This document shows, piece by piece, positions 7,506 through 30,249 of a stretch of 64,000 bases of DNA. Below the pieces are notes generated by a model. The model saw nothing but the letters and a program-made list of their open reading frames with translations. It did no database searches and was not told the origin of the DNA. The position numbers were made by a program, and so were the translations under genes. How positions within the stretch are numbered: position 1 is the first letter of the stretch; each line of letters starts with the position of its first letter. The DNA comes from Pirellulales bacterium. Its GTDB lineage: Bacteria; Planctomycetota; Planctomycetia; Pirellulales; PNKZ01. Where the stretch lies: contig DATAXP010000009.1 in assembly GCA_036272935.1 (NCBI GenBank), forward strand, positions 6,876 through 70,875, in the 5' to 3' direction.

Positions 7506-8591
7506 TCATCCGGTGCTTTCGGGACGGCGGATGCCCAGCAACTCGCCCACCTGGCCGCGGACGCCTTCGTCGCGGATCAGCTCGTTGAGCAACTGCTCGA
7601 ACGGCATGTGGCCCCAGGCCACGGCCCGTTCGATCAGGTAAGCCACCGGGCTTTGCGGCTCCGTCTGACGCAGGTAATGGGCCACTTCGGCCAGCCGGCG
7701 GAATGCTTCTTGCCGCGAAGCGATCGGTCCCTTCATCGGCGTCATGCCGCCGGCCGCGGCCTCGCCGTTGGTCGCTTCGCCGGCCGGCTGTTCGCTGGCC
7801 TCCTCGGCAAGCCCGCCTTTATCGCGCACGATACGGCGCAGCAGCGCTTCGACTTCCTCAAGCGCCTGGCGCAGGGCGGTAGTTCCCGGCGCGAGCTTAG
7901 CGAAGCGGGCATCGAGCACCTTGTCGAGATTCTTCAGCTCGGCCGCTGCCTCGAGCGCGTCTTGCCGCAACTGCACGACAAAGTCGCGGGGCGTGGCGGT
8001 CACCGCCTCCTCGAACTTCCGCGCCCGTTCTTCCGCTTCGGCCTTGCGGCGATCGTAAGCGTTGTTGTCCTCGTTCTCGCCCTTGGGCGATAGCTTGCGC
8101 GAGTTCCAATAGTTCCACGAATACGCTTCGTCGGAGGCCGCAGCGAGCGGCACGTCGCGCAGTGCATTCGGCAGCCGTGCGCCCCCTTTGGAATCGGTCA
8201 GAAACACCAGCGGCGCGACGCGCGTCTCCAGGTCGCCATCCTCTGGCAACGGATACACGCCGTCCCAGAACGTGTCGAGCAATGTCCCGACCAGCTTGAC
8301 GCCGTCGCGCAGCCCGGCGAAGCCTTGCATACTCACCAGCGCCTCGACCAGCCAACTGGCAATCATCAGGTCTTTCGACTGCTTGGCCAACGCATCGCTG
8401 GTCAGATCGACGACCTTCCGCCACTCGACGGCCGGTGCCTCATCGGTCCCCAGCATATCGCGGTCGCCGCGCTGCCGGGCCGATTTGATCTCCTGATAGA
8501 TCGGCTCCCAGCGCAGATCGACGCCGCACGGATTGCCGCCAGCAATCGGCGCCAAGAGGCGATCGAAATCCACCTGCGGAGCCGAAGCCAT
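7506..8591 (-). CDS. tssA: T6SS TssA (ImpA_N domain, short form)
   Basis: LLAPI...PCGVDLR, SKDL.IA.WL.EAL, FWDGVYP and C-terminal EPQSPV.YL..RA..W. Confidence 0.92.
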   Translation of the reverse strand: MASAPQVDFDRLLAPIAGGNPCGVDLRWEPIYQEIKSARQRGDRDMLGTDEAPAVEWRKVVDLTSDALAKQSKDLMIASWLVEALVSMQGFAGLRDGVKLVGTLLDTFWDGVYPLPEDGDLETRVAPLVFLTDSKGGARLPNALRDVPLAAASDEAYSWNYWNSRKLSPKGENEDNNAYDRRKAEAEERARKFEEAVTATPRDFVVQLRQDALEAAAELKNLDKVLDARFAKLAPGTTALRQALEEVEALLRRIVRDKGGLAEEASEQPAGEATNGEAAAGGMTPMKGPIASRQEAFRRLAEVAHYLRQTEPQSPVAYLIERAVAWGHMPFEQLLNELIRDEGVRGQVGELLGIRRPESTG

Positions 8592-8748
8592 GCGCATTCG
8601 TCCGACAAGAAGAGCGGACGCCCCAGTTGGCATGCAGCCGATCGGTGATGTAAGCGTCGCCCCAGCCTGCGGCTCAGTATAAGTGGGCGCAATCGAAAGT
8701 AAATGACTGGGCGTTAAATTCCGGCCGACCTTCGATCGCTGGTGCCTT

Positions 8749-11694
8749 TTAGATTACCGGGTATCCGACATGGATGGTCTTCGTGGCCACGGTCGAGGTG
8801 TTGCCCAGACCGTCGGTCAGCGCGAAGCTGACCGTGCGATCGTACACGCTCATCGCCGAGTTCGTGTTGTAATAGGCAATGTCGTCGGTGACCGCTTGCA
8901 CGGCGGCGATTGTCGCCGAGCTGAGGAACTGCACGACCAGCGGCGTCGAGCCCGAGCCGGGCGCGTACAGCGCGACGAGGGTGCTGTTGTTGTAGACGAG
9001 GGCGTAGATGCCTTGCACGCTTGTCGCCAGCACCGTGATGCCGTTGCCGTTGGAGACGACGAGTGTGTCGTTGGAGCCCGAGTTGGCAATCGAGACCACG
9101 AGCCGCGAGTTTTCCAGATCGTTTGCGCCCGATACGGTTGCCGAGCCGGCAATCACGGTCGCCCCGCTGCCCACGGTGTAGTTGGTTGTCGTGCCGAGAT
9201 TGCTCACGGCCGGCGGGACGCCGGCAACGTGGATCGTCTTGCTCACGGCCGCCGAGAGGAATCCCTGGCTATCGGTCAATTGGAACGACACGCTGCGATC
9301 ATAGATCCACATGCCGGCGTACAGGTTCGAGAACACCACGTCGTCGACCACGGCCTGGACCGAAGCCACCGTGGCGAGACTGGTGAATTGCACGACGAGC
9401 AGGTTGCTGCCGGAACTGGCCCCGAAGTAGCCGATCACCTGGCCGCCGTAGCTCAATGAATTATTCATGGTGTTGATGGTCACGCCGTTGCCGGCGGCGA
9501 TCGTCATCACGTCGTAATTTCCCGAGTTGGCGAGTGATACGACCAACTTCGAGTTGGCCATTCCATTAACTCCCGCCGTAACGGTTGCCAAACCGGCCAC
9601 GCTGATCGCGGCACTTCCGGCGGTGTAATTGGCCGTCGGACCTAAGTTGCCGATCGCCGGGGGAGCCTTGATCACATGGATCGTTTCGGTCACCGGGGTC
9701 GCTGAAACGCTCTTGCTGTCGGTCAGCTTGAAGGTGGCCGTGCGATCGTAAGCCGAGGCTGACGTATTGGCGTTGTAGAACACCACGTCGTCGAGCACGG
9801 CTTGCACCGCGGCGGCCGTCGCCGTGCTATTGAACTGCACGACCAGCGGCGTCGACGCCGAGCCCGCCGAATACCAGCCCACCAGGCTGCCGTTGTACAG
9901 CACCTGGGTGAGCCCCGGAGTGCTGCTGGTGGCAAACGTCACTCCGCCACCGGCGGCGAGTGTCAGTGTGTCGCCGCTGCCGGCGTTGGCACTGAGCCCC
10001 ACGGTGAGCTGCGACCCGGCCAAACCGTTGGCACCGGCGCTGGCCGAGGCGCCGGCAGCAATCGCGGTCGGCCCGTTGCCGACCACATAGGTCACCAGCC
10101 CCAGATTGCCGATCGCCGGGATGGCAAGGTATTCAAATGCGCCGACATCGGCGGCGCCAGAGCGCGCGATCCCGCGCTCGTCGAACGGCAGCAGCACACC
10201 GGCGCCCGAGCTATGGCTGGCGGCGGTCGTGCCATTGTAGCCGCGCACGACGGTGACCGTGCCGGTCGAGGCGATGTAGCCGATGATTTCGATCTGCTCG
10301 CTGTCGACCTGAATCACATAGGTTCCCGGCGTGCTGGCGATCGCGGCATAATTGGTCAAGACGCTCGTCGAGAAGGAAGTGGCGGTGGCATTGATACTCG
10401 CGGCGAGCGTGGTGATCGCGCCGCCGGCATTGATGGCTGGACTGCCCGACTGGAGCGCCATGGTCTGCATCGCGCCGCCGTTGCCGGCTAGTGCGCCCAG
10501 CAGCGGATCGATCGGGCTGGCCGTCGTGCCGACCTGGTTGCCATTGGCGTCGCCGTCGCTGATGCCGGTCATGCCGGTGCCGTCGCCGATCAGATTTTTG
10601 GTGCTCCCAATCGCGATCGCACCGTCGAAATCCGAAACGCCTCCGCCGTAGGCGAACGTGTTGCCGGCCACAATGCTGTTGAGCAACGTGGCGGAGCTGG
10701 TGTTGTAAACGCCACCGACGTTGGCCCCGGCATTGGCCGAAATGGTCGAATTGCTGATCGTCAGCGCACCGGAATTGGCGATGCCGCCGCCGAAGCTGCC
10801 GGAGTTGTACCCGATGGCAGCCGTATTTCCTGAGATCGTGGAGTTGCTGACGGTCAGCGTGCCGGAATTGTTGATGCCGCCGCCGAGGGTGGTGTATTGG
10901 TGGCCAGAGTCGTAGTTCCCTGAGATGGTCGAATTGCTGATGGTCATCGAGCCGGAGTTATTGATCCCACCGCCTACGGCGCCGTAATAGCCATAGGAAG
11001 TATTGTTCGCGATCGTCGAATTGCTGACCGTCATCGAGCCGACGTTGTCGATGCCGCCGCCGGAACTGCCGTACGTGCGGGCGATATTTCCCGTGATCGT
11101 CGAATTACTGACGGCCATCGTTCCTGAATTGTAGATGCCTTCGCCGCCAGCGCCGCCGTTGCTGTCGATGATGTTTCCCGAGATCGTCGAGTTGTTCACC
11201 GCCAGCGTGCCGGCATTGTTGATGCCGCCGCCGACGCTGGCGCTGCCGTCGGCGATCGTCAGCCCCGTCAGCGCAGCGGTCACACCCGCATCGACTTGGA
11301 ACACGCTGCTGGCTGCGTTGCCGTCGATGGTAATCTGGCCGCCGCCGTTGATCGTGATGGCGCCGATGCCGGCGCCGCCTTGTCCGAGTTCCAACTGACC
11401 TTGTGCGAGCTTAATCGTCTGGCCGTTCAGATTGGAACCGAAAGTGATCGTTTCGGATTGGCCGTTCAGGGCGTCGGCATTGGCCGTGCCGATCGCGTCG
11501 CGCAGCGACACACCGGAGTGCGCCGCAGCGTCGCTGGTCGTGGTTACCAACAGCGGGTTGACACTAACCACCAGCAATCGGCGGCCTTCGAGCGGCTCGA
11601 ACCCCAGGGTACGATAGGACCTGCGATGCGCCGCAGCTGCATTGAATAAAGGGGTCTTGGTTCGGCGTCCGCGCAGCCAATGAGACACGTTCAT
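8749..11694 (-). CDS. Planctomycete extracellular (LExRxLL leader) beta-helix/choice-of-anchor-Q protein with 3 C-terminal Ig/cadherin-like repeats (paralog 1)
   Basis: GFEPLEGRRLL leader, SLRDAI, GGGI.N.G.L...NSTISGN repeats, LGALA.NGG..T.AL..GSPAINAG...D.GAFE, three ~145-aa repeats ending YDRT..F.LTD...TIHV. Confidence 0.85.
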   Translation of the reverse strand: MNVSHWLRGRRTKTPLFNAAAAHRRSYRTLGFEPLEGRRLLVVSVNPLLVTTTSDAAAHSGVSLRDAIGTANADALNGQSETITFGSNLNGQTIKLAQGQLELGQGGAGIGAITINGGGQITIDGNAASSVFQVDAGVTAALTGLTIADGSASVGGGINNAGTLAVNNSTISGNIIDSNGGAGGEGIYNSGTMAVSNSTITGNIARTYGSSGGGIDNVGSMTVSNSTIANNTSYGYYGAVGGGINNSGSMTISNSTISGNYDSGHQYTTLGGGINNSGTLTVSNSTISGNTAAIGYNSGSFGGGIANSGALTISNSTISANAGANVGGVYNTSSATLLNSIVAGNTFAYGGGVSDFDGAIAIGSTKNLIGDGTGMTGISDGDANGNQVGTTASPIDPLLGALAGNGGAMQTMALQSGSPAINAGGAITTLAASINATATSFSTSVLTNYAAIASTPGTYVIQVDSEQIEIIGYIASTGTVTVVRGYNGTTAASHSSGAGVLLPFDERGIARSGAADVGAFEYLAIPAIGNLGLVTYVVGNGPTAIAAGASASAGANGLAGSQLTVGLSANAGSGDTLTLAAGGGVTFATSSTPGLTQVLYNGSLVGWYSAGSASTPLVVQFNSTATAAAVQAVLDDVVFYNANTSASAYDRTATFKLTDSKSVSATPVTETIHVIKAPPAIGNLGPTANYTAGSAAISVAGLATVTAGVNGMANSKLVVSLANSGNYDVMTIAAGNGVTINTMNNSLSYGGQVIGYFGASSGSNLLVVQFTSLATVASVQAVVDDVVFSNLYAGMWIYDRSVSFQLTDSQGFLSAAVSKTIHVAGVPPAVSNLGTTTNYTVGSGATVIAGSATVSGANDLENSRLVVSIANSGSNDTLVVSNGNGITVLATSVQGIYALVYNNSTLVALYAPGSGSTPLVVQFLSSATIAAVQAVTDDIAYYNTNSAMSVYDRTVSFALTDGLGNTSTVATKTIHVGYPVI

Positions 11695-11765
11695 CGTTGG
11701 TGATCCCTACCTTAACGTCGAAAAAGCCGCATGCTGCGGCCGGTGCAGCCCCACAAGGAGTAGCC

Positions 11766-11794
11766 AAGGTAGGCGAGACGGGTGGGTAATGCAA
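11766..11794 (-). promoter_or_regulatory. Putative sigma70-type promoter of paralog 1
   Basis: TTGCAT-N17-TACCTT on the minus strand. Confidence 0.5.
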
Positions 11795-11835
11795 GTAGTC
11801 TGCGCAAGAATTGCTGTCGCGCGCGTGCGCCTTTG

Positions 11836-13008
11836 TCAGACCACGCTTCGCAGCGTCGCGGGAACGTCGGGCATGGCTTCGTCAGACAATTCGAACGAAC
11901 CGTCCAACCGCTGCTCGTCTGCGGTGAGCACGTCTGGGTAGCGGAGCCCCGGCAAGACTTCGACGGCGAAGATTTCCTGCACAGCCTCCTCGAACCTCAC
12001 GAAGGCAACCGTGTCCCCGGTGCGCAGATCCACGACCCACACGCCACAGTTGCGATCTTTCAGGCGGTCGACTAAGGGAATGCCGCTGAACACCGCCGAC
12101 TCGCGAACCTGCGACAGTCCGACGAACGCCAAGGGACCGTAAAACGACAGGCCGCGCGTGAAACCGGGCAACTGGGCGACTTCTTCATAACGTCCGCTGG
12201 CCAGATCGACTGTGCCGATGCCCCCTGCGCCGGAGTTCAGCACCCACAGACGACCGTGATGCCAGCGCGGCGAATGGGGCATGGAGAGCTGACGGGCGAC
12301 GACCTCGTTGGTTGTGATATCGATCAGCAAGCCGCCGTCGCGCTTATTGGTCCGCCAGCCGCCATCGTCGTCGGTTTCGCCCAGCGCCGTGACGTAACCT
12401 GGCCGGCCGTCGCGCATGCCCAGGCCGTTGAGATGACAGCGATCGGTCGGCGACAGTCCGCTGACAAACCGTGGTCGCCAGCGCGGTTGGAAACTGTACA
12501 CATCGCTGCGCGTGCAAAGGCACGAAAAGGCCGTGTTGACGAACCATAGCTCGTCGCCGGCCCAGGCCATTTCGTGAATATGGATATCACCCGTGACGTG
12601 GCCGACCCGCGGCAGGAAACAGGCGTCGTGCCGGCCCACCGGCTCCAGCTTTTGCGCCACGGCCGGGAGGTTATGAAACTCCCATACTTCGCGCGAGGTG
12701 CCGATCGCCAATCGGCCCCCATGAACCGCCAGACCCATCGGCTTGTTGAACACTCGGAAATGTGTGTTGAGCAATTCTCCTTCGGCGCGCAGCGCGACGA
12801 GCTTGCCGGCCTGATAGGTAGAAACCAGCAGCGAGATACCCAGCTCGGCAAGAATACTCGGAAAGCTTAGCGTGTGAACGCTGCGCAGCGGCGCATGCTC
12901 GGGATCGGCCGAAGGCGCCTGCTGAGCCGGTGCCAGCGATTCCGCCTTCTCGACGGAAGTCGAATCAGGTTTGTCGGACGGTGGCATCGCCATGGCGCGG
13001 TCCATCAT
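11836..13008 (-). CDS. TIGR03032 family (DUF4915) protein
   Basis: STYQAGKL, TGDIHIHE, VNTAFSCL, DRCHLNGL, LSMPHSPRWH, PGFTRGL, FVGLSQVRE. Confidence 0.88.
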   Translation of the reverse strand: MMDRAMAMPPSDKPDSTSVEKAESLAPAQQAPSADPEHAPLRSVHTLSFPSILAELGISLLVSTYQAGKLVALRAEGELLNTHFRVFNKPMGLAVHGGRLAIGTSREVWEFHNLPAVAQKLEPVGRHDACFLPRVGHVTGDIHIHEMAWAGDELWFVNTAFSCLCTRSDVYSFQPRWRPRFVSGLSPTDRCHLNGLGMRDGRPGYVTALGETDDDGGWRTNKRDGGLLIDITTNEVVARQLSMPHSPRWHHGRLWVLNSGAGGIGTVDLASGRYEEVAQLPGFTRGLSFYGPLAFVGLSQVRESAVFSGIPLVDRLKDRNCGVWVVDLRTGDTVAFVRFEEAVQEIFAVEVLPGLRYPDVLTADEQRLDGSFELSDEAMPDVPATLRSVV

Positions 13009-13120
13009 CGTCCGGCGCTATTGCGTGTCAAGGTTATGGCGGCAACAGACCACCTCACCACGGCGCGCACGTTGCACGCCTGATGACGCATCAGCGGGCT
13101 TCTCCCCGTCACGCCGCGCG

Positions 13121-15766
13121 CTACGGCCCGGCCGAGACGTGGATCGTTTTAGTGGCCGGCATCGAAACGTTATTCAACTCGTCGGTCAATGAAAAGCTGA
13201 TCGTGCGATCGTAGACGCTCATCGACGAGGTCGTGTTGTAATAGGCGATGTCGTCAACAACCGCTTGCACGGCCGCGATGGTCGCCGAGCTGTTGAACTG
13301 CACCACCAACAGCGTCGAACCCGAGCCGGGCTGATACCAACCGACGATCGTGCCGTTGTACAGCACCTGGTAAACCCCCGCTGTAATGCTGGAGGCGAGC
13401 GTGATACCGTTGCCGGCCGAGATCACCAGCTTGTCGCTCGAGCCGGCGTTGCCGATCGACACGACCAGCTTCGAGTTCTCCAGGTTGTTGGCGCCCGAAA
13501 CGGTCGCCGATGGCGCGATCGTCGTCGGTCCGCTGCCGGACGTGTAGTTGGTTGTCGAGCCGAGGCCGCTCACCGCGGGCGGCGCGGCGACGAAATGGAT
13601 CGTCTTGGTGGCCGCGGCGGAGACGACTCCCTTGCTGTCGGTCAACTGGAACGAGACCGTGCGATCGTAGATCCAGGCGCCGTTGCTGGTGTTGCTGAAC
13701 ACCACGTCGTCGATCACCGCCTGCACGGCAGCCGTCGTGGCCTTGCTGGTGAACTGCACCACCAGTGGCGTCGCCCCGTTACTGGCTGCGAAATTGGCGA
13801 TCGTATTGCCGCCGTAGATCAGCGCCGTGCCCGCGATCGTGACACCGTTGCCGGTGGCGATCGTGGCGACATCGTAGCTGCCGGAGTTGTTAATCGTGAC
13901 CGTGAGCTTCGAGCTGGCCACGCCGTTGGTCCCCGCGGTGACCGTCGCGGCGCTAGCCAGCGCGACCGCCGCGCCGCCGGGCGTGTAATTTACCGTGCTG
14001 CCGAAGTTGTTGATCGATGCCGGAGTGCCGTGGTACTCGTAGGCGCCGATGTCGGCCGTACCGACGCGGGCGTCGCCGATCTGGTCGGTCGGGAAGGTGA
14101 CTACCGCGCCGACGTTATGCATGGCGGCGGTCGTGCCGTTGACGTGGCGCGTGACCGTGAGCGTCCCGTTCGTGTCGGTGATCAGCATCTGTTCGCTGTC
14201 GATCTGGATCAGGTACGTGCCGTTGGAGGAGGCAATCGCGCCGAAGTTCGCAAACACACTTGTGCTGAACGAGGCGGTGGTCGAGTTGATACTCGAAGCG
14301 AGCGTGGTCACCGCCCCGCCGGCATTGATGGCCGGGCTGCCGGCTTGCAAGGCCATGACCTGTGTCGCGCCGCCGTAGTTGGCCAGCGCGGTGAGCATGG
14401 GGTTGATGACCGGGCCGCCATTACCGCCGATCTGGTTGCCGTTCGAGTCGTTGGCGATGCCGGCCATGCCAGTGCCGTCGCCGATCAGGTTGTTCGAGCT
14501 CGACGCATCGACAAAGCCACTGATATCCGATTCGGAGCCGGCGGTATTACCGGCCACGACCGTGTTCATCAGCACGATCCGGAGATAACCTGCTTGATAG
14601 ATGCCGCCGGCACCGAATTGGGCCGAGTTGCCAGAGATCGTCGAGTTGCTAACGTTGGCGTTGCCTTCGTAGAACAGGCCGCCGCCGTAGTCGCTGGAAA
14701 TATTGTTGGCGATGGTCGAGTTGGACACTGTCAGCGTCGTGTTCTGGTAGGTCCAGATGCCAGCACCGTCGTAGCTACTGTTGCCCGAAACAGTCGAGTC
14801 GTACAGCGTGAGGGTGCCACCGAGGTAGATGCCTCCCGCGCTGTCCGAGCTGCTGTTATTCGAGATCGTCGAATTGCTCACGGTGACCTGACTGGCGTAG
14901 TCGGCGTCCATGGCCCCGCCCCTATTGCTCGCGGTGTTGTTGGTGATCGTCGAATTGCTGATCGTGACCTGCGCGCCGGCGACTTCGATGGCCCCGCCAT
15001 AGGCGGCCGAATCCGACGAGAAGGTCGAGCCGCTGATCGTCGTAGGATCGCCGCTTCCAATAGCGCCGCCTGAGCCCCCGGCGGCGGAATCGAAAGTGAA
15101 CGTCGAGTTGCTGACGTTCAGCATCATGCTGTCGGCGCTGTAAATGGCACCACCGCCGGTGGCCGAGTCGTACGAAAGCGTCGAGCCGCTCACGGTCAGC
15201 GACGTACCTTGGTTATAAATCCCGCCGCCGATGTAAGTGGAGGTGCAATTCGAGATCGTCGAGTTCGTGACGGTCAGCGTGCCCAAGTTGTTGATGCCGC
15301 CGCCGCCGTTGCCGGGAATGTCGTTGCCGCTGGTGATCGTCAGCCCTTCAAGGGTTGCCGTCACGCCACTATCGACGAGAAACACCGTGACGGCGTTGTT
15401 GCCGCTGATGGCGACGTTGCCTGCACCGTTGATAGTGATCATGCCCGAGCCCGCGCCGCCAGCCCCGAGTTCGAGGCTGCCCTGCGAAAGCACAATGGTC
15501 TGGCCGTTGAGGCCGGCTGCGAAGGTGATCGTGTCGGACTTCCCGCTGCGGGCATCGGCGTTGGCGGTGCCGATGGCATCGCGCAGCGACACGCCCGAGT
15601 GCGATACGGCGTCGCTGGTGGTTGTGACCACGAGCGGATTCACACTAACGATCAACAACCGGCGCTCCTCGAGCGACTCGAAACCAAGCCGGCGATCGCG
15701 TTGCCGCTGCGATCCGCGAAACGACTTGCCCGCTTTGCGTCCGCGCAGCCAATGAGGCACTTTCAT
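13121..15766 (-). CDS. Extracellular beta-helix/choice-of-anchor-Q protein with 2 C-terminal repeats (paralog 2)
   Basis: MKVPHWLRGR...LGFESLEERRLL; same architecture as paralog 1. Confidence 0.85.
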   Translation of the reverse strand: MKVPHWLRGRKAGKSFRGSQRQRDRRLGFESLEERRLLIVSVNPLVVTTTSDAVSHSGVSLRDAIGTANADARSGKSDTITFAAGLNGQTIVLSQGSLELGAGGAGSGMITINGAGNVAISGNNAVTVFLVDSGVTATLEGLTITSGNDIPGNGGGGINNLGTLTVTNSTISNCTSTYIGGGIYNQGTSLTVSGSTLSYDSATGGGAIYSADSMMLNVSNSTFTFDSAAGGSGGAIGSGDPTTISGSTFSSDSAAYGGAIEVAGAQVTISNSTITNNTASNRGGAMDADYASQVTVSNSTISNNSSSDSAGGIYLGGTLTLYDSTVSGNSSYDGAGIWTYQNTTLTVSNSTIANNISSDYGGGLFYEGNANVSNSTISGNSAQFGAGGIYQAGYLRIVLMNTVVAGNTAGSESDISGFVDASSSNNLIGDGTGMAGIANDSNGNQIGGNGGPVINPMLTALANYGGATQVMALQAGSPAINAGGAVTTLASSINSTTASFSTSVFANFGAIASSNGTYLIQIDSEQMLITDTNGTLTVTRHVNGTTAAMHNVGAVVTFPTDQIGDARVGTADIGAYEYHGTPASINNFGSTVNYTPGGAAVALASAATVTAGTNGVASSKLTVTINNSGSYDVATIATGNGVTIAGTALIYGGNTIANFAASNGATPLVVQFTSKATTAAVQAVIDDVVFSNTSNGAWIYDRTVSFQLTDSKGVVSAAATKTIHFVAAPPAVSGLGSTTNYTSGSGPTTIAPSATVSGANNLENSKLVVSIGNAGSSDKLVISAGNGITLASSITAGVYQVLYNGTIVGWYQPGSGSTLLVVQFNSSATIAAVQAVVDDIAYYNTTSSMSVYDRTISFSLTDELNNVSMPATKTIHVSAGP

Positions 15767-15833
15767 CGTGATCCCTCAGCGTGAATTGAACCGCCTGGAG
15801 TGACCGAGATGTCACACCTGCATAAAGTACGCG

Positions 15834-15862
15834 ACATTAACCGCGCCACTTCGACGAGGCAA
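15834..15862 (-). promoter_or_regulatory. Putative sigma70-type promoter of paralog 2
   Basis: TTGCCT-N17-TAATGT on the minus strand. Confidence 0.5.
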
Positions 15863-15994
15863 GCGATTTTGTGCGAAGTGTAACGTGGGATCGTTCGCCC
15901 AATGCTAGCGCAAGATTGCTTGAGATGCGCGCACTAAAGTGCCATGCCCGCGCGATGCGATCACGTGGGCATGGCACAACGATTCGAGCGACCG

Positions 15995-18601
15995 CTATAC
16001 AACGGGCAGGCCCACGTGGATCGTCTTCGTGGCCACGGTCGAGGTGTTGCCCAGACCGTCGGTCAGCGCGAAGCTGACCGTGCGATCGTAGACGCTCATC
16101 GCCGAGTTCGTGTTGTAATAGGCAATGTCGTCAGCGACCGCTTGCACGGCGGCTGCCGTGGCGGCGGTGTTGAACTGCACGACTAAAGGCGTCGAGCCCG
16201 AACCCTGCTGGTACCAGCCGACGATCACGCCGTTGTACAGCACCTGGTAAATGCCCGCCGTGCTGCTGCTGGCGAGCGTGATGCCGTTGCCGGCCGAGAT
16301 CACCAGCATGTCGGTCGTGCCGGCGTTGGCGATCGACACCACCAGCTTCGAGTTCTCCAGGTTGTTGGCACCCGACACCGTGGCGCCGCTGGCGACTACC
16401 GTCGCTCCGCTGCCTGGCGTGTAGTTGGTCGTCGGGCCGAGGTTGCTCACCACCGGCGGCGCGGCGACAAAATGGACAGTCTTCGTCACCGACTCGCCGG
16501 CGACATTGTTCTGATCGGTCAACTGGAAGGTGGCGGTGCGGTCGTAGATCCAGGCACTGGCACTGGTATTGGAGAACACGACGTCGTTCATCACCGCCTG
16601 GACAGCGGCCGTCGTCGCCTTGCTGGTAAACTGCACCACCAGCGGTGTCGAGCCGGAACCGGCGGTGAAGTAGCCGACGATGTTGCCGCCGTAAGTCAGC
16701 GCGCTGTTGTTGATGGTCACGCCGTTGCCGGCGACGATCGTGGCGACGTCGTAAGTGCCGGCATTGCCGATGCTGACCACCAGCTTCGAGCTAGCCAGGC
16801 TGCTGGTGTCGGTGACCGTGGCCGCGCTGGCCAGCGTCACTGGCGCGCCGCCGGCGGTGTAGTTCACCGTGCCGCCGAACGTACTGATCAATGCCGTCGC
16901 GCCGTGATACTCGTAAGCGCCGATGTCGGCCGTGTTGACGCGGGCGTCGCCGATCTGGTCGTACGGCAGCGTGATCGCGGCACCGGCATTGTGGCTGGCC
17001 GCCGTGGTGCCGTTGGCGTGGCGCGTGGCCGTAATGTTGCCCGAGCTGTCGACAACGATTTGAATCTGCTCGCTGTCGATCTGGATCAGGTACGTGCCGG
17101 GCGTGCTGGCAATCGCGGCGTAGTTGGTGACGATGCTGGTGGTGAACGCGGTATCGGTAGAGTTGATAGTCGTGGCCAGCGTGGTGACCGCGCCGCCGGC
17201 GTTGATGGCGGGACTGCCCGACTGCAAGGCCATCGTGGTGGTCGTGCCGCCGTAGTTGGCCAACGGGTCGAGCATGGCGTTGATCGGGCTGCCGGAAGTG
17301 CCAACCTGGTTGCCGTTGGCGTCGTTGTTGCTGATGCCAGTGAGGCTGCTGCCGTCGCCGATCAGGTTGTTGTTGCTCGACGAGACGACCGCGCCGTAGA
17401 CATCCGCGCTGCCAATGGGATCATCGGCGATGGTGTTGCCCGCTACGATCGTGTTCACGAGCGTCACCGTGGCGGCATTGAAAATGCCCCCACCATAGTC
17501 GTAGGCTGCCGAATTGTTCGAGATGGTCGAGTTGGTGAGGGTGATCGAACTGGAGTTGTCGTTGTACACGCCCCCGCCGCCGTACGTCGTGGAGCCTCCG
17601 CTGGCTGCATTGCCCGAGATGGTCGTGTTCACGACGGTCATCACGGAATCGTCGCTGTTGGAGATGCCGCCGCCATATTCGGATGTGTTCCCGGTGATGG
17701 CCGAGTTCTCGATGGTGGCGTAGGCGTAGTAGTAGTTGAGGATGCCGCCGCCTTCGCCCAAGCCTCCCGAATTGTTCGAGAGCACGGAGTTGTTCATCGT
17801 CAGATAAGCAGCGTAATAATCGAAGATGCCGCCGCCATCGTAGTACGCCGTATTGCCCGAGATGGTCGAGTTGTTCACCGACATTGTGACGTATGCATAG
17901 TTGTAGAACCCAGCCCCCTCGTAGCCGTAGTTGTTCGAGATCGTCGAGTTGGTGAAGCTCAATACGACTTCGTTTTCGTCGTAGAAGGCGCCTCCCTCGC
18001 TCGAGCTGTAGTTGTTGTTGATCGAGGTGTTGGTGAAGTTCAGCGTGCTGTAATAGGCGTAAATCCCGCCGCCGTAGGTGCCGGTGTTGTAGGCGATCGT
18101 CGAGTTGCTGACGTTCAGCGTCCCTCCGTCCACATAGATCGCCCCGCCGTATTCACTGGACCCGTCGGTGATTGTCAGCCCTTCGAGAATTGCCGACGAA
18201 AAGTACTCGTAGAACACATCACTCGACTTGTTGCCGCTGATGGTGATCTGGTTCGCGCCGTTGATCGTGATCGTGCCAGTACCATCGGAGCCCAGCTCCA
18301 GATCGCCTTGCTGCAAGACGATCGTTTGGCCGTTGAGGCTGGAGTCGAACGTGATCGTGTCGGAGATGCCGCTCAAGGAATCGGTGTCGGCGGTATTAAT
18401 CGCGTCGCGCAGCGACACGCCCGAGTGCGACACCGCGTCGCTGGTCGTGGTCACCACCAGCGGATTGACCACCACGCTGAGCACGCGGCGCTCTTCGAGC
18501 GATTCGAAACCGAGACTGCGATATCGCCGCGGCCGAGCGCCCGGAGCGCTGAAAAGTGAATTGTTCTTACGCCGACCGCGCAGCCAATGAGGTACTTTCA
18601 T
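15995..18601 (-). CDS. Extracellular beta-helix/choice-of-anchor-Q protein, Tyr-rich, with 2 C-terminal repeats (paralog 3)
   Basis: Start re-assigned to MKVPHWLRGRR by homology to the paralogs; GFESLEERRVLS leader. Confidence 0.85.
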   Translation of the reverse strand: MKVPHWLRGRRKNNSLFSAPGARPRRYRSLGFESLEERRVLSVVVNPLVVTTTSDAVSHSGVSLRDAINTADTDSLSGISDTITFDSSLNGQTIVLQQGDLELGSDGTGTITINGANQITISGNKSSDVFYEYFSSAILEGLTITDGSSEYGGAIYVDGGTLNVSNSTIAYNTGTYGGGIYAYYSTLNFTNTSINNNYSSSEGGAFYDENEVVLSFTNSTISNNYGYEGAGFYNYAYVTMSVNNSTISGNTAYYDGGGIFDYYAAYLTMNNSVLSNNSGGLGEGGGILNYYYAYATIENSAITGNTSEYGGGISNSDDSVMTVVNTTISGNAASGGSTTYGGGGVYNDNSSSITLTNSTISNNSAAYDYGGGIFNAATVTLVNTIVAGNTIADDPIGSADVYGAVVSSSNNNLIGDGSSLTGISNNDANGNQVGTSGSPINAMLDPLANYGGTTTTMALQSGSPAINAGGAVTTLATTINSTDTAFTTSIVTNYAAIASTPGTYLIQIDSEQIQIVVDSSGNITATRHANGTTAASHNAGAAITLPYDQIGDARVNTADIGAYEYHGATALISTFGGTVNYTAGGAPVTLASAATVTDTSSLASSKLVVSIGNAGTYDVATIVAGNGVTINNSALTYGGNIVGYFTAGSGSTPLVVQFTSKATTAAVQAVMNDVVFSNTSASAWIYDRTATFQLTDQNNVAGESVTKTVHFVAAPPVVSNLGPTTNYTPGSGATVVASGATVSGANNLENSKLVVSIANAGTTDMLVISAGNGITLASSSTAGIYQVLYNGVIVGWYQQGSGSTPLVVQFNTAATAAAVQAVADDIAYYNTNSAMSVYDRTVSFALTDGLGNTSTVATKTIHVGLPVV

Positions 18602-18676
18602 CGTGGTAATCCCTACCTTTTGGAAAAACCGCCGCTTGTCTGCGACAGGATGTCGCACCCCCAATAAGAATTGACC

Positions 18677-18705
18677 AAGTTAAGTGAACGTGTTACGCAA
18701 CACAA
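18677..18705 (-). promoter_or_regulatory. Putative sigma70-type promoter of paralog 3
   Basis: TTGTGT-N17-TAACTT on the minus strand. Confidence 0.45.
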
Positions 18706-18787
18706 GGAGTTTGCGCAAAGATTGACGGCGGGAACTCACCCACCCGCGCTGAAGCGCCGGAATGCATCCGCCACGGCGGAAGGGTAC

Positions 18788-21649
18788 TTACAGCACGTGA
18801 ATCGTCTTGCTGGCCGCGCTCGAGGATACGCCTTTACCGTCAGTTAGTGAGAAACTAACCGTGCGGTCGTACACGCTCATCGACGGATTGGTGTTGTAGT
18901 ACGCCACGTCGTCGACCACCGCTTGCACGGCCGCGGCCGTAGCGGCACTGTTGAACTGCACGACTAAAGGCGACGAGCCGGCGCCGCTTCCGAAGTTGCC
19001 GATCACCGTGCCGTTGTAAAGCACCTGGCTGCCATTGAGCGTGATGCCGCCGCCGGCGACGATCGTGAGCACGTCCGCGCTACCGGCGGAGCCAAGGCCC
19101 ACGGTGAGCTTCGCGGCGGCAAGCCCATTGCTGCCGGCCGTCACTGTGGCGCCACTGGCGACGACCGTGGCGCTACTTCCTGGCGTGTAGTTCACTGTCG
19201 CGCCGAGGTTGCCGATCACCGGCGGCGACGCAACGAAGTGAATCGTTTCGGTCGCCGGCGTCGACGCGGTGCCCTTGCTGTCGGTGAGCGTGAAGCTTGC
19301 CGTGCGATCGTAGATGCTCGGCGTCGAGTTCGTGTTGTAAAACGCCACCTGGTCGACGACCGCCTGCACGGCCGGAGCCGTGGCCGAGGCGAAGAACTGC
19401 ACCAGCAACGGCGACGCACCCGCGCCAGCCGTGAAGTTGGCGACTGCCGTGCCGTTGTAGCTGAGCGTGCTGCCGGAAATCGTGACGCCGCTGCCGGCGA
19501 CGACCGTCACGACGTCGGCGCCGCCGGACGAGCCAACGCTCACCGTCAGCTTTGCGTCGGCCAAGCCGTTGCTACCGGCGGTGACGGTAGCGCCCGAAGC
19601 CAGCAAGGTCGCGCCGCTGCCGGCTGTGTAGGTCACCGTACCGCTGATGTTACCAATCGCCGGCGGCGAGGCGACGAAATGTACCGTCTTGGTTACCGGT
19701 GTCGATGCGACGTTCTTGCTGTCGGTGAGCGTGAAGCCGATCGTGCGATCGTAGACGCTTGCCGAGCCGTTGGTGTTGTAGAACGCCACGTGCTCGATCA
19801 CGGCCTGGACGCTGGTCTGCGTCGCCGCGCCGTTGAATTGGACAAGTAACGGCGACGCGCCGGAGCCCGCCACGAAGTTGCCAATGAGCGTGCCGTTGTA
19901 GAGCACCTGGCTGCCGCTGGTCGTGACACCGCCGCCGGCGGCGATCGTCACCGCATCGGCGCCTCCGGCCGAGCCGACGCTGACCGTGAGCTTTGAGCTG
20001 GCCACGCCGTTGCTGCCGGCCGAGACCGTGGCGCCGCTGGCGACAATCGTCGGCCCGTTGCCGACCGTGTAGGTCACCGTGCCGCCGAAGTTGCCGATCG
20101 CCGGCGGACTGACGGTGTACTCGTAGGCGCCAATGTCGGGAGCACCGACGCGCGCATCGCCGATCTGGTCGAACGGCAGAATCACAGTCGCGCCGGCAGC
20201 GTGCGCCGCCGCGGTGGTGCCGTTGTAGCCGCGCACCACGGTGACGGTGCCGGAGCTGTAGCTCGTGATCTCGATCTCTTCGTTGTCGATCTGAATAACA
20301 TACGTGCCGCTGGTGCTGGCGATCGCGGCGAAGTTCGTGAATGCGCCGCTGGCCAACGAGGTGGCGGTGGCATTGATGCTCGAGGCGAGCGTGGTGATCG
20401 GACCGCCGGCGTTGATCGCGGGGCTGTTGGCCTCGAGGGCCATGGTCTCGGTCGAGCCGCCGTTGTTGGCCAAGGGGCCGAGCAGCGGAATGATCGGGTG
20501 GGCCGAGCTGCCGACCTGATTGCCGGCAACGCCGTTGGCGAGTCCCGATCCCAAGCTGCCCGAGTCGATGCCGATCAGGTTGTTCGTGCTGCCGGCGGCC
20601 AGCGCGGCCCCATAGTAGTCGGAGGCGCTGGGATTGGAATTCACTGGCATGTTGCCCGCGACGATTGTGCTGAGCAACGTGAGCGAGGTTCCGGAGGAAA
20701 AGGCTTCGTCATAGATGCCGTCGCCGTTGTCGAGCGCGGAATTGGCGGCGATCGTCGAGTTGCTGATCACCATGACCCCGCCGTCATTGACCCCGCCGCC
20801 GTTACCGGCCGTGTTTCCGGAAACGGTCGAGTTGCTCAGCGTCATGGTGCCGTGGCTAAAGGCGCTGCCGGAGTTTTCGATTCCGCCGCCGTAGTCGCCG
20901 GTGTTGCTGGTGGAGTTTCCCGAAATGGTGGAATTGACCACCGTCATGGTGGCGCTATTTTCGATTCCCCCGCCATCGTTGCCAGTATTTCCTGAGATCG
21001 TCGAATCACTCACCGTCATCGTGCCCGCGTTGTAAATCCCTCCGCCGGAGTTGGCGGAATAATTTCCGGAGATCGTCGAATTGATGACCGTCATGATGCC
21101 ATAGTTTTCGATGCCGCCACCGTTAACACTTCCGGAGATCGTCGAATTAGTCAGCAATAAGGTGCCGCCATCGCCCGGCTCCTCGTTAAACAGGCCGCCG
21201 CCTTGGCTGGCGTCGATGATCGCGAGGCCGTTGAGGACGGCATTCCCGCCGATCACGCTGAGCACGCCCGTGGTGTTGTTTCCGCTGATCGTGATCTGAT
21301 TGCCGCCGTTGATGGTGACTACACCGACGGACGGGACGACGGTTCCCGCGCCGATTTCGAGTTGACCCTGGCTCAGCGTGATCGTCGAGCCGTTGAGGCT
21401 GGCGTCGAACGTGATCGTGTCGGAGATGGCGTTGGCGGCGTCGGTGTTGGCCGTGATGATCGCATCGCGCAGCGACACGCCGGAGTGCGACGCCGCGTCG
21501 CTGGCGGTCGTCACCACGATTGATGTCAGCAGCCGGCGGCCTTCGAGCGACTCGAATCCCAGGTTGCGGTAATGACGACGAGCCGAGGTGGACACTGCCT
21601 GAAAACGATCACGACGCCGCGAGCCGCGCAGCCAATGGGGCAGTTTCAT
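18788..21649 (-). CDS. Extracellular beta-helix/choice-of-anchor-Q protein with 3 C-terminal repeats (paralog 4)
   Basis: MKLPHWLRG...LGFESLEGRRLL; same architecture. Confidence 0.85.
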   Translation of the reverse strand: MKLPHWLRGSRRRDRFQAVSTSARRHYRNLGFESLEGRRLLTSIVVTTASDAASHSGVSLRDAIITANTDAANAISDTITFDASLNGSTITLSQGQLEIGAGTVVPSVGVVTINGGNQITISGNNTTGVLSVIGGNAVLNGLAIIDASQGGGLFNEEPGDGGTLLLTNSTISGSVNGGGIENYGIMTVINSTISGNYSANSGGGIYNAGTMTVSDSTISGNTGNDGGGIENSATMTVVNSTISGNSTSNTGDYGGGIENSGSAFSHGTMTLSNSTVSGNTAGNGGGVNDGGVMVISNSTIAANSALDNGDGIYDEAFSSGTSLTLLSTIVAGNMPVNSNPSASDYYGAALAAGSTNNLIGIDSGSLGSGLANGVAGNQVGSSAHPIIPLLGPLANNGGSTETMALEANSPAINAGGPITTLASSINATATSLASGAFTNFAAIASTSGTYVIQIDNEEIEITSYSSGTVTVVRGYNGTTAAAHAAGATVILPFDQIGDARVGAPDIGAYEYTVSPPAIGNFGGTVTYTVGNGPTIVASGATVSAGSNGVASSKLTVSVGSAGGADAVTIAAGGGVTTSGSQVLYNGTLIGNFVAGSGASPLLVQFNGAATQTSVQAVIEHVAFYNTNGSASVYDRTIGFTLTDSKNVASTPVTKTVHFVASPPAIGNISGTVTYTAGSGATLLASGATVTAGSNGLADAKLTVSVGSSGGADVVTVVAGSGVTISGSTLSYNGTAVANFTAGAGASPLLVQFFASATAPAVQAVVDQVAFYNTNSTPSIYDRTASFTLTDSKGTASTPATETIHFVASPPVIGNLGATVNYTPGSSATVVASGATVTAGSNGLAAAKLTVGLGSAGSADVLTIVAGGGITLNGSQVLYNGTVIGNFGSGAGSSPLVVQFNSAATAAAVQAVVDDVAYYNTNPSMSVYDRTVSFSLTDGKGVSSSAASKTIHVL

Positions 21650-21750: not shown

Positions 21751-22449
21751 TCACTCAGCGATGCCCGTCGCGCGCAGCGCGCGGGCCAGGCGATCGAGTG
21801 TCTTGGCGTGCAGGCGGCTGGCCCAGGCTTTGCCGATGTTCTGTTGTTGGCCGGCGTCGGTGAGTGTGAGGCCTTCGAAGTAGACGGCGCGGATCAAGCT
21901 GCGCGATTCCGCGGGAAGCTGATCGATCAGTTCACGCAGCCGCTGGTGCGATTCGCGCTCGGCGGCGACTTCGGCCGGCGGTGGCTGCGCGTCGTCGGCA
22001 CACTCCCACTCCGATTCTTCATCGCTTCCGGCGCGGCTCGACAGATAGACCACCGACAAGGCGCGGGTCACGTTCTTGAACCAGTTGGCGTCGTCTTCGG
22101 CCGTCGGCGCAGCGGCCTGGGCCGTGTCTTCCTGCGCCAGGCGCAGCACGTCGCCGGCCATTTGTTCGTATTTGATTTTTCGCGCCTGCGAGCGCTTGAG
22201 CCAAGACATCTTCGACAAGCCGTCGTAGATCGCCCCGCGAATGCGATAGAAGGCGAACGTGGTGAACTGCCCGCCGCGATTGGGATCGAAATCGCGTGCC
22301 GCCTCGGCCAGGCCCACCTGGCCGTAGCCGATCAGGTCGTCCAGTTCCACGCTTGCCGGCAGCGTGCGATGGATCTTCAACGCCAGCGACTTCACCAGCC
22401 CCTGGCAATCTTCGATCAGCGATTGCGTGGATTGGTTGACGGCGGTCAT
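21751..22449 (-). CDS. RNA polymerase sigma factor, FliA/WhiG (sigma28) family
   Basis: LVKSLA.KI...LP..VELDDLIGYG.VGL.EAA..FDP.RG..F.TFA..RIRGAI.DGL (region 2) and a region 4 HTH; start MTAVNQ overlaps the upstream stop (ATGA). Confidence 0.9.
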   Translation of the reverse strand: MTAVNQSTQSLIEDCQGLVKSLALKIHRTLPASVELDDLIGYGQVGLAEAARDFDPNRGGQFTTFAFYRIRGAIYDGLSKMSWLKRSQARKIKYEQMAGDVLRLAQEDTAQAAAPTAEDDANWFKNVTRALSVVYLSSRAGSDEESEWECADDAQPPPAEVAAERESHQRLRELIDQLPAESRSLIRAVYFEGLTLTDAGQQQNIGKAWASRLHAKTLDRLARALRATGIAE

Positions 22450-22829
22450 GGTCGCTGCCCGGAGAGACGTGCCCACAAACGCTCGAGACGCTCGCGGGAG
22501 TTGGGATCGTCGCACAAGGTCACGGCAATGCACTGCGAGAGATTGTCGAGCATGGCCGGCGTGAGCCGGCTGCCGACTTGCGATTCGAGCACCGCGCGCA
22601 CCAGCTCGACGACCACCGGGTCGACCTTGAACGCCTTGCCGCGATGAGTGCGGGCGACCTCGGCAAAGTCGCTCAGTGCATCGGCAGCTGAGTCGGGGCG
22701 ATTGGCCGCCGCCTTGAGCGTTTGATCGAGGATTTGTTCCAGCGCGCCGAAGGTCAGCTCGTCGTCATCCTTGGTGCGCTCGGGATGGGCATTCGAGCCG
22801 GTGTCGCCGGGTTGGTAGGGACCTGACAT
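22446..22829 (-). CDS. Hypothetical helical protein translationally coupled to the sigma factor
   Basis: MSGPYQ...IAVTLCDDPNSRERLERLWARL; ATGA overlap with the sigma gene. Confidence 0.7.
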   Translation of the reverse strand: MSGPYQPGDTGSNAHPERTKDDDELTFGALEQILDQTLKAAANRPDSAADALSDFAEVARTHRGKAFKVDPVVVELVRAVLESQVGSRLTPAMLDNLSQCIAVTLCDDPNSRERLERLWARLSGQRP

Positions 22830-22851
22830 GGGGCGGTCTCTGTGCTCCTTG

Positions 22852-22979
22852 TTCCCCCTCTCCCTTTGGAAGAGGGTGCCCGTCGCCGCGGCGGACGGGT
22901 GAGGGTGAACCAAGTCTCGCCGCCGATGCCGCTTCGCCCTCATCCGGCCTTCGGCCACCTTCTCCCAGTGGGAGAAGGA
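22852..22979. repeat. REP-like composite repeat (family 1)
   Basis: Homologous to 3653-3778. Confidence 0.75.
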
Positions 22980-22982
22980 CAT

Positions 22983-26921: not shown

Positions 26922-27047
26922 CTTTTCACGCCACGCGCGGTGTGATGGAGGGGGCTCACCTATCCGCGAATCCAGCACCGTCCTTCCCGCCTTGCGGTGG
27001 CTGTTTTGCAGCGCACACGTCCGGGGTCATCGAGCGAGTTCTCCGTT

Positions 27048-30000: not shown

Positions 30001-30245
30001 GCGATGCGCGGCTGCGCTACGCCATGAAGCTGTGCGTGGCCCGCGATCCCAGTGCTGCCGAGTTGGGCACGCTGCGCAGCTTGCTCGACGAACAGCGGCA
30101 ACTGATGCTGGCTGACGAGAACGCCGCGAAAGAAGTGATCGGCAGCGAGCCGGCGCCTGAGGGTATCGGTGCCGACGAACTGGCCGCGTGGATCATCGTT
30201 GGCCGCACACTCATGAACCTCGATGAATTCATCACGCGAGAGTGA
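27048..30245 (+). CDS. Planctomycete cytochrome c / DUF1549 / DUF1553 (PSD1) protein
   Basis: CYSCH haem motif, MPP, HWAF, LIRRLSLDLLGLPPT, YGERWARHWLD.ARYADS, CAQCHTHKYDP, PSHPELLDWLA, NTPLQAL.LLN. Confidence 0.92.
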   Translation: MVGRVICRACAWFALASLAQGAETSKPSDSAAKPVDFARDIQPLLAKRCYSCHGPEQAEASLRLDRKADALRGGNSGPAFVPGHSADSRLVKFVAGTSDDDMIMPPEGERLSTTEVAMIRTWIDSGATWPEEPVTARTSTHWAFRPIKNCKPPDVAATRRVRNGIDRFVLAKLAAKGIHPSPEANRATLIRRLSLDLLGLPPTPAEVDDFVNDRSRDAYDRLVDRLLASPHYGERWARHWLDLARYADSDGYEKDTGRPHAWRYRQWVIDALNRDLPFDQFTIEQLAGDLLPGATVEQRVATGFHRNTLTNREGGVDQEQFRVAATVDRVNTTGTVWLGLTVGCAQCHTHKYDPILQREYYGLFAFFNSLQETETPAPLPAQLEQYQQEKRAFDAEHAKLTTAVKQFEADRLPDRLAAWERRLKLPEQTEWEALDPRTMTGMGGGKRATLTHLGSGVVAVAGDNPPADNYTLTAEPLLRTITALRLEVLADPELPGHGPGRSANGNFVLTELRAFKVAPASKKKESRQTAVAIRTGYSDVAQQGFPLQEAFDGKLTSGGWAIAPATGRDHVAVFEFTKPIVLNDRDELSIVLSQQYKGEHTLGRFRLSVTNAATPVRAQGAGPNIADILDKPAEQRTAAEQAIVTAYYRKLDPELSKLDLAVSDHARRAPIDPQQTVKAQTLNDLKAPRETHVLVRGDFLRPGAKVDPHTLEVLNPLKPSGTQPTRLDLAHWLIDPKNPLTARVTVNRIWATYFGRGLVPTVDDFGTQGDKPSHPELLDWLAANFIRGVEDRGLRTKDASNQPPVPSPQSPASWGLKALHKLIVTSATYRQASHYRADLAERDPLNTLLARQRRLRVEAEVVRDLSLAASGLLDERVGGESVRPRQPQGIAELTYAGVGKWIESTGSDRYRRGLYTWFQRTAPYPMLMTFDAPDSNVTCARRERSNTPLQALTLLNDPVFFECAQSLARRIVRESPQADDPAATRDARLRYAMKLCVARDPSAAELGTLRSLLDEQRQLMLADENAAKEVIGSEPAPEGIGADELAAWIIVGRTLMNLDEFITRE
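29408..29485. repeat. Heptamer (STRR-like) repeat inserted in frame in the PSD1 gene
   Basis: CAGCCCC-CAGTCCC-CAGCCCC-CAGTCCC-CGGCCTC at 29451-29485, preceded by a degenerate complementary arm. Confidence 0.65.
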
Positions 30246-30249
30246 TCTC

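Follow-up and report, generated by a model that had tools for sequence, protein, structure and literature searches.

Within a cluster of type VI secretion system (T6SS) genes in a 64,000-nucleotide stretch of the genome of a Pirellulales bacterium (assembly GCA_036272935.1, contig DATAXP010000009.1, positions 6,876 to 70,875; hereafter, the window) there is a block of five open reading frames (ORFs), four of which encode large paralogous proteins with a planctomycete-type N-terminal leader and one of which encodes a protein of the TIGR03032/DUF4915 family. The block represents a widespread cassette of two parts, copies of which recur across phyla. The first part would consist of one or more exported surface proteins of the beta-helix/choice-of-anchor-Q type, here four in number, in which a planctomycete N-terminal export motif appears to replace the Sec signal and to which a putative immunoglobulin (Ig)-like stalk is joined at the C-terminus; the second part is the TIGR03032/DUF4915 protein, a predicted cytoplasmic six-bladed propeller. 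It is a planctomycete instance of an undescribed but recurrent module and not a novelty of the T6SS. We consider it probable that the account holds as a whole, i.e., that the TIGR03032 protein of such a cassette acts on the surface proteins before their export and that the position of this copy among T6SS genes is incidental.

The genomic company of TIGR03032 across phyla

The surroundings of TIGR03032 genes were examined in two samples, one comprising the 79 loci closest to the window gene, out of at least 596 TIGR03032 loci, and extending over seven phyla, the other comprising 20 TIGR03032 copies from a set of 40 relatives' genomes. Blind clustering of the neighbours at the 79 loci yielded one dominant family, present in 42 loci, whose members have either a signal peptide or an LExR leader at the N-terminus and, directly after it, ..TVT..D.G.GSLR.AI..AN....D.I.F, the same cap that is found in the window paralogs. 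With these paralogs as queries, tblastn matched 43 of the 79 loci, always in the N-terminal cap (N-cap), the helix or the choice-of-anchor-Q (CAQ) part and never in the stalk. When the two approaches are combined, a beta-helix/CAQ neighbour is present at 48/79 loci, and at 33 of the 46 that have at least 5 kb on both flanks. Such neighbours occur in Planctomycetota (14/27 loci), Pseudomonadota (19/25), Acidobacteriota (5/5), Cyanobacteriota (4/11), Actinomycetota (2/3), Verrucomicrobiota (2/2) and Chloroflexota (1/4). Counted outward from TIGR03032 by gene rank, the family occupies 33/131, 15/118, 9/111, 3/101, 1/91 and 1/78 positions and then none, a decay with its peak at the first neighbours that argues for true linkage. 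Six of eight family members tested pass the choice_anch_Q model, some of them also matching POMP_repeat, para_beta_helix or IPTL-CTERM, and tandem arrays of 3-5 paralogs around a single TIGR03032 gene recur at other loci, e.g., with four paralogs at L072 and three each at L126, L130, L120 and L114.

TIGR03032 was found in 15 of the 40 relatives, often in 2-5 copies (16 of 41 genomes when that of the window, with its one copy, is counted). At 5 of the 20 loci examined there, the gene directly alongside encodes a giant of 846 to >3100 aa whose leader is of the LExRxLL type, a further two cases being probable or near; by comparison, the strict motif is carried by about 17 of the 3798 ORFs called in the genome of the window, most of them belonging to the paralog family. 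Three of four LExRxLL-leader giants tested contain FG-GAP domains and the fourth is of the matrixin/dockerin type. Searches by tblastn with the paralogs gave no match in these 20 loci, whose TIGR03032 copies mostly belong to other clades with other partners. In one further genome (G421) the TIGR03032 gene is divergently oriented to the adjacent gene, whose LExR-leader product has the stalk repeats of the paralogs, and in another (G196) it lies beside the gene for a 2808-aa LExR giant. In a FastTree phylogeny of 89 TIGR03032 domains there are three groups: one that is paired with FG-GAP-type giants, a second without an obvious partner, and a third of 76 rows, including the window gene, in which 43 rows have CAQ neighbours. 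The original prediction, which was made from the sequence of the window, had named beta-helix proteins, LExRxLL proteins and T6SS genes as the neighbours to look for near TIGR03032 homologs elsewhere; the counts just given bear out the first two, and for T6SS genes they are nil in both samples (0/20 and 0/79).

The other recurrent neighbours of TIGR03032 are generic, i.e., Ser/Thr kinases, ABC ATPases, histidine kinases, PSCyt/PSD1 proteins, short-chain dehydrogenase/reductase (SDR) proteins and extracytoplasmic-function (ECF) sigma factors. A family of ~170-240 aa, which matches no Pfam or NCBIfam model and has no counterpart in the window, lies directly beside TIGR03032 at eight gammaproteobacterial or actinobacterial loci (L090, L111, L115, L124, L129, L130, L136 and L137) and may be a third cassette component there. 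At three gammaproteobacterial loci (L072:12356-13903, L095:5985-7430 and L112:7995-9980) an additional N-terminal segment, ..AWDS..RF...Y..L.ALPR..RRALER.L.., precedes a hydrophobic stretch in the beta-helix neighbour; the protein at the first of these weakly matches rhombotarget A (TIGR04212).

The array and its proteins

Table 1. Features of the array and its flanks, in positions of the window
Feature	Position	Strand	Length	Remarks
Paralog 1	8749..11694	-	981 aa	
Paralog 1, leader	11560-11694	-		residues 1-45
Paralog 1, SGVSLRDAI N-cap and beta-helix	10525-11559	-		residues 46-390
Paralog 1, CAQ module with ~75-aa insert	10120-10524	-		residues 391-525
Paralog 1, three ~145-aa repeats	8752-10119	-		residues 526-981
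TIGR03032/DUF4915 protein	11836..13008	-	390 aa	profile matches, fold model
Paralog 2	13121..15766	-	881 aa	two C-terminal repeats
Paralog 3	15995..18601	-	868 aa	from ATG agreeing with the other leaders; two C-terminal repeats
Paralog 4	18788..21649	-	953 aa	three C-terminal repeats
Sigma-70-type gene	21751..22533	-		regions 2 and 4; upstream flank
tssA (ImpA_N)	7506..8633	-		downstream flank
Promoter-like TTTACT-N16-TATACT	8676..8703	-		just upstream of tssA

All five ORFs of the block lie on the minus strand where the original prediction had placed them. The four paralogs are intact, and alignment and profiles confirm the common leader, SGVSLRDAI, the CAQ module and the 3/2/2/3 copies (in paralogs 1/2/3/4) of a ~145-aa C-terminal repeat that it had ascribed to them, along with a putative beta-helix; ORF coordinates and profile matches likewise agree with it that paralogs 2 and 1 flank the TIGR03032 gene and that the block is situated between the sigma gene and tssA. 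The open frame of paralog 3 extends to a TTG at 18664, which would give 889 aa. The placement of the array is real and no assembly artefact: soil-metagenome contigs from a run that is possibly the source of this DNA span the joints of tssA with paralog 1 and of paralog 4 with the sigma gene, and contigs from another sample of another study span the joints of paralog 4 with the sigma gene and of paralog 1 with TIGR03032. Misassembly through DNA repeats in the paralogs was considered and rejected, the joints being spanned in this way and the copies being only 60-77% identical as DNA, a degree of divergence that makes them old duplicates.

As proteins the paralogs align end to end, with 58-61% identity to paralog 1 in the four-way alignment. 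M..HWLRG, LGFE.LE.RR.L and HSGVSLRDAI are invariant in all four, which also share the longer block HSGVSLRDAI..A..D...S.TITF, a coil region made of GGGI...(N/D)STISGN units and a CAQ module that ends in D.GA.EY and is split, in the alignment, by the insert of ~75 aa. The original prediction had described a variable head on a constant stalk, and a contrast of this kind is present, though only a moderate one: mean pairwise identity is 49.5% in the helix core, with 44-129 gapped columns, as compared to 58% in the leader, 67% in the N-cap, 61% in the CAQ module and 59-69% in the repeats. All four paralogs pass the NCBIfam model choice_anch_Q (NF041518) at 44.6-58.8 bits against a cut-off of 25, the best stretch covering model positions 1-37 of 58 and a second stretch being matched in three of the four. 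CSLREA_Nterm (TIGR04214) is matched below threshold in three (16.2-17.4 bits vs 25) and not in paralog 1. Pfam Beta_helix (PF13229) is passed by paralog 3 alone (32.5 bits vs 25.9); the other three give no match to it at E up to 0.01, yet their coil regions align with that of paralog 3 over the full length. Searched against solved structures at E up to 0.01, a profile of the paralogs matches none, whether of a lyase or of anything else.

The described families that come closest are the choice-of-anchor Q/CSLREA proteins (NF041518, TIGR04214) and those with chlamydial repeats of Pmp type (TIGR01376), which the paralogs resemble in the CAQ module that all four possess. They differ from choice-of-anchor Q/CSLREA proteins in having Val in place of the eponymous Cys (their N-cap motif SGVSLRDAI aligning with the CSLREA motif), in the splitting of the CAQ module, and in bearing 2-3 Ig-like repeats instead of a C-terminal sorting signal. 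PMC9245377 names a protein with a CSLREA domain among the putative substrates of the type II secretion system of Acinetobacter.

The leader has a single Pfam match in all four paralogs, to PF07595 (Planc_extracel), at 11.8-19.6 bits against a cut-off of 25.5, so that one may speak of a resemblance and not of curated membership. Its LGFE.LE.RR.L motif sits at the position of a signal peptide, as in that family, to which the window proteins add the start M.V.HWLRG. In non-PVC homologs, the Sec signal peptides end in register with this leader, directly before the TVT..D..GSLR.AI cap, which fits the role of an export signal. In PMC8567305, the related motif RRLxxExLExRxLLA, a planctomycete cell-surface signal motif credited to Studholme et al. 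2004, is presumed to be a novel export signal, and LExRxLL is reported in planctomycetes, Tuwongella immobilis and R. baltica among them. The same paper reports 52 motif proteins in T. immobilis, 20 of which were detected and 8 of these only in the SDS fraction, motif proteins being enriched in the SDS cell-envelope fraction (PMC8567305).

The ~145-aa repeat is matched by no Pfam model. Of 400 other Planctomycetota genomes sampled, 28 have it, with a patchy distribution, and the proteins concerned are often 4000-5800 aa long. An AlphaFold2 (AF2) model of two repeats (pLDDT 89.6) consists of two beta-sandwiches with one short helix each; integrin, pilin, intimin and cohesin domains are among the folds nearest to it (Z 8-10), and Foldseek lists cadherins too. 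The Ig/cadherin-like character that the original prediction had given these repeats and the adhesin label that it had given the set of proteins may thus stand at the level of a modelled fold and at no level beyond it; the tandem Ig-like stalk by which fibrillar adhesins are recognized is likewise predicted from a fold-level match only. Neither Pfam nor NCBIfam recognizes a sorting-signal family or a cell-wall or membrane anchor, and the proteins stop 5-10 residues past the last repeat. At least nine further paralog loci exist in this genome, in unrelated contexts on contigs C6, C7, C23, C93, C110, C119, C120, C125 and C140. At two of these (C7:3-4853 and C6:31935-35912) a single long ORF, of 1616 and 1325 aa respectively, comprises a pair of heads or of paralog units in one frame, which may have arisen by fusion or may represent tandem genes with no stop between them; several paralogs lie at contig ends.

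The 390-aa protein encoded between paralogs 2 and 1 is a full-length member of its family, far above both curated cut-offs: TIGR03032 scores 427.2 bits (cut-off 251.5, NCBIfam) over positions 4-330 of 335, and PF16261 (DUF4915) 442.5 bits (cut-off 35, Pfam). The family has no described function, and no paper that mentions TIGR03032, DUF4915, PF16261 or choice-of-anchor Q by name came up in a literature search. The protein has no signal peptide, nor was one found among 76 homolog N-termini, in which the domain begins after a short hydrophilic stretch. It is predicted to have a disordered N-terminus of ~40 residues followed by a six-bladed beta-propeller; the AF2 model is all-beta (pLDDT 82, pTM 0.83), and VIA-align places it with six-bladed propellers, YWTD modules coming first (Z 21-23) and lactonases, NHL domains, PAL, strictosidine synthase and arylsulfate sulfotransferase next (Z 19-20). 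Foldseek returned generic Kelch-type matches only (TM ~0.5), the ESM Atlas only sub-0.9 leads to NHL, strictosidine-synthase and SGL propellers, and a profile search of solved structures nothing better than noise at E 0.15. A complex prediction for residues 38-390 and the N-terminal 130 residues of paralog 2 scored 0.00; it had no controls and counts neither way.

TIGR03032 proteins of different phyla are 53-66% identical. In an alignment of 13 sequences (36-66% identical to the window protein) there are 48 invariant columns, which include three His (H145, H192, H245), two Cys (C163, C191) and several Arg and Asp, residues that may line the central pocket of the propeller. Fusions to tetratricopeptide (TPR) domains (some with GT9), sulfotransferase, Asp/Asn-hydroxylase or GNAT domains occur in 22 of 76 TIGR03032 proteins. 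Of 24 ORFs of at least 600 aa at TIGR03032 loci, 23 contain DUF4915, and among the 24 there are 11 with TPR (5 of these with the heptosyltransferase-like Glyco_transf_9, or GT9, domain), 10 with Sulfotransfer_3, 7 with Asp/Asn beta-hydroxylase and 1 with GNAT. The fusion partners are all cytoplasmic, cofactor-dependent modifying enzymes, and this is the strongest hint to function that we have.

A recent insertion into a conserved T6SS cluster

On the minus strand the order of genes is tssK, tssL, a short tssM-like gene, a 178-aa ORF and the sigma gene, then the array, and then tssA, tssB, tssC, hcp, tagJ, a PKMT-like gene, tssE and tssF; the sigma gene is assigned to the T6SS cluster because relatives without the array have it too. 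The orthologous cluster was located via TssA in the 40 relatives, and five clusters were compared with the window proteins. The array is absent from all five, including those of the same genus. In four of them (G002, which is of the same genus, and G011, G021 and G035) sigma and tssA lie side by side in the same orientation, separated by ~60-180 bp, and the fifth (G001, also of the same genus) has a rearranged cluster, likewise with no array. As sigma abuts tssA in relatives, the array is a 13-kb insertion, lineage-specific and recent, into a conserved T6SS cluster. The promoter-like TTTACT-N16-TATACT is found both in the short sigma-tssA gap of G002 and next to tssA in the window, from which it follows that the insertion took place between the stop codon of sigma and the promoter region of tssA; a scan of promoters and terminators found sites no more numerous than in shuffles, and the element near tssA was retained since it is common to G002.

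The cluster itself has some unusual features. In the segment 21751-24593 (-) there are a short TssM-like protein (536 aa, IcmF-related_N only), the 178-aa ORF (22446-22982), which is conserved and has no Pfam match, and the sigma-70-type gene; the latter two are present in 5/5 related clusters and the short TssM-like gene in four, the fifth locus (L059) starting too late. The PKMT-like protein-lysine methyltransferase (Methyltransf_25, MethyTransf_Reg, PKMT_2nd; 2064-3638, -) between tagJ and tssE is also encoded in the cluster of G002 (80% identity) and is absent from those of G001 and G021. Beyond the cluster, the window encodes a PSCyt1/PSCyt2/PSD1 protein with a DUF1501 partner (26997-31749, +) and a 984-aa FG-GAP and BNR protein (33128-36082, +). 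The PSCyt1/PSCyt2/PSD1 and DUF1501 genes, together with the relatives found, mark the DNA as planctomycete.

The role of TIGR03032 and the readings that compete

In the account that we favour, the TIGR03032 protein would act in the cytoplasm on newly made beta-helix proteins before they are exported, and possibly also in trans on the scattered paralogs, either as a modifying enzyme itself or as the module by which modifying enzymes recognize their clients. The paralogs would then leave the cell by a leader-dependent, T6SS-independent route, the one used by the scattered copies, and be displayed as adhesin-like surface proteins with a beta-helix head on an Ig-like stalk. The original prediction had cast TIGR03032 as a maturation or modification factor, which the pairing with these neighbours and the fusions to enzyme domains support indirectly. 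Co-occurrence, too, speaks for a gain of the two parts together: both genomes of the same genus lack TIGR03032 as well as paralog-like genes, and TIGR03032 is present in 8 of 10 relatives with a paralog-like match as compared to 7 of 30 without one, counts that are only suggestive and are overstated since kin are not independent.

By their logic, the closest known systems would be pairs of an adhesin and a dedicated cytoplasmic glycosyltransferase. HMW1/HMW1C of Haemophilus influenzae and AIDA-I/Aah and TibA/TibC of E. coli are beta-helix adhesins with such partners, and in these, as in the window, what appears to be an exported beta-helix surface protein is encoded beside a cytoplasmic accessory protein without a signal peptide. 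The TPR and GT9 domains of the long TIGR03032 ORFs (11 and 5 of 24) may be a further likeness. The defining feature of HMW1C, Aah and TibC is absent, in that the accessory protein of the window is a predicted six-bladed propeller without a glycosyltransferase domain (Pfam reports DUF4915 only, and GT9-like domains are confined to the fused homologs); and its presumed clients have a planctomycete leader, unlike HMW1, AIDA-I and TibA with their two-partner or autotransporter secretion.

Several other readings of the array must be weighed. According to the original prediction the paralogs might give target or kin specificity to the T6SS, and one may extend this to a reading in which they are T6SS cargo or specificity determinants that TIGR03032 prepares for that machine. 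The block does lie inside the cluster, on the same strand and directly downstream of the sigma gene, and variable cargo islands are common inside T6SS clusters. Against this, the array is missing from the five related clusters, and none of the T6SS proteins of the window has a homolog at any of the 99 other TIGR03032 loci. T6SS proteins are likewise missing from the 20-kb region examined in G421 and from the locus in G196, the genomes with LExR partners described above. Moreover, the paralogs bear the same N-terminal export motif as copies that are scattered in housekeeping contexts; the three vgrG genes and the single PAAR gene are away from the main cluster on contigs C5:13041-18421 and C70:4467-7597, where there are no paralogs; and the paralogs have no match to a PAAR, MIX, Rhs or adaptor domain in Pfam or NCBIfam. 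The proposal of T6SS specificity therefore finds no support in these comparisons, a T6SS role seems to us very improbable, and the position of the array inside the cluster is most likely incidental.

It is also conceivable that TIGR03032 is not a modifying enzyme and serves instead as a chaperone or targeting factor for a non-Sec route of export specified by LExRxLL. The protein is cytoplasmic and lacks a signal peptide, and its planctomycete and verrucomicrobial neighbours often bear the motif whatever their domains (FG-GAP, PKD, matrixin, or the stalk repeats in G421). TIGR03032 is found in 16 of the 41 genomes searched; PMC8567305 reports the motif from planctomycetes, T. immobilis and R. 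baltica being examples. The same TIGR03032 clade pairs with beta-helix homologs that have Sec signals in Pseudomonadota, Acidobacteriota and Actinomycetota and lack a leader in Cyanobacteria, and the domains to which it is fused are those of enzymes and not of secretion components, all of which makes this reading unlikely. We think it similarly unlikely that TIGR03032 and the beta-helix proteins belong, as enzymes, to a single extracellular or envelope glycan pathway, e.g., for the processing of a sulfated polysaccharide, with TIGR03032 acting on the sugar instead of the proteins. The right-handed beta-helix is a common fold of polysaccharide lyases and hydrolases, sulfotransferase domains are fused in 10 of the 24 long ORFs, and lactonases and sulfotransferases are among the fold neighbours of the propeller; but no solved lyase structure is matched by the paralog profile, the Pmp-like GGxI...NSTISGN coils and Ig-like stalk of the paralogs are typical of adhesins, and TIGR03032 also pairs with FG-GAP giants, which are not glycan enzymes. 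Finally, there may be no functional link at all, TIGR03032 merely travelling with surface-protein genes on mobile islands, as the patchiness of the pairing and the 53-66% identity across phyla, suggestive of horizontal spread, would allow. Linkage that is strongest at the immediate neighbours, recurrence in seven phyla with very different flanks, and repeated fusion to protein-modifying domains speak against such hitchhiking, which we regard as quite unlikely.

A number of observations weigh against the cassette account itself. The six nearest relatives of the window TIGR03032 in the tree have no CAQ neighbour in the DNA covered, and 31 of the 79 loci have no beta-helix/CAQ neighbour, though many of these are on short contigs. 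Two relatives (G008 and G022) have paralog-like genes and no TIGR03032, and three genomes at 86-90% completeness (G417, G266 and G250) have stalk-repeat proteins and no TIGR03032, from which we conclude that the partnership is facultative. The further paralog loci of the present genome have no adjacent TIGR03032, its single copy being elsewhere. The enzyme activity of TIGR03032 is itself putative: the spread of predicted folds among its matches does not separate a binder from an enzyme, the window protein is unfused, and the block contains no gene for a glycosyltransferase, sulfotransferase or hydroxylase. As for the incidental position, the array genes lie on the strand of the T6SS genes, and read-through from the sigma gene, hence co-regulation, is possible.

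A bolder version of the favoured account may be put forward tentatively, as a possibility that we ourselves think rather doubtful. TIGR03032 would be a new class of cytoplasmic protein-modifying enzyme, a six-bladed propeller lined with His and Cys that marks beta-rich surface proteins before export, the mark possibly being sulfate- or sugar-linked, given the fusion partners. Its client family in this genome would number ~14 or more, served in trans by the single gene, and insertion behind the T6SS sigma gene could also tie the display of four of them to T6SS expression.

TIGR03032/DUF4915 is a highly conserved family, and the genomic context given here for it is new to print; with a reproducible genomic partner and with fusions to enzymes, its role becomes directly testable. 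The connection of this array to the T6SS is most likely an accident of insertion, which removes a false lead for T6SS specificity, and the LExRxLL leader, standing where Sec signal peptides stand in other phyla, bears on the route by which the surface proteins of planctomycetes are exported.

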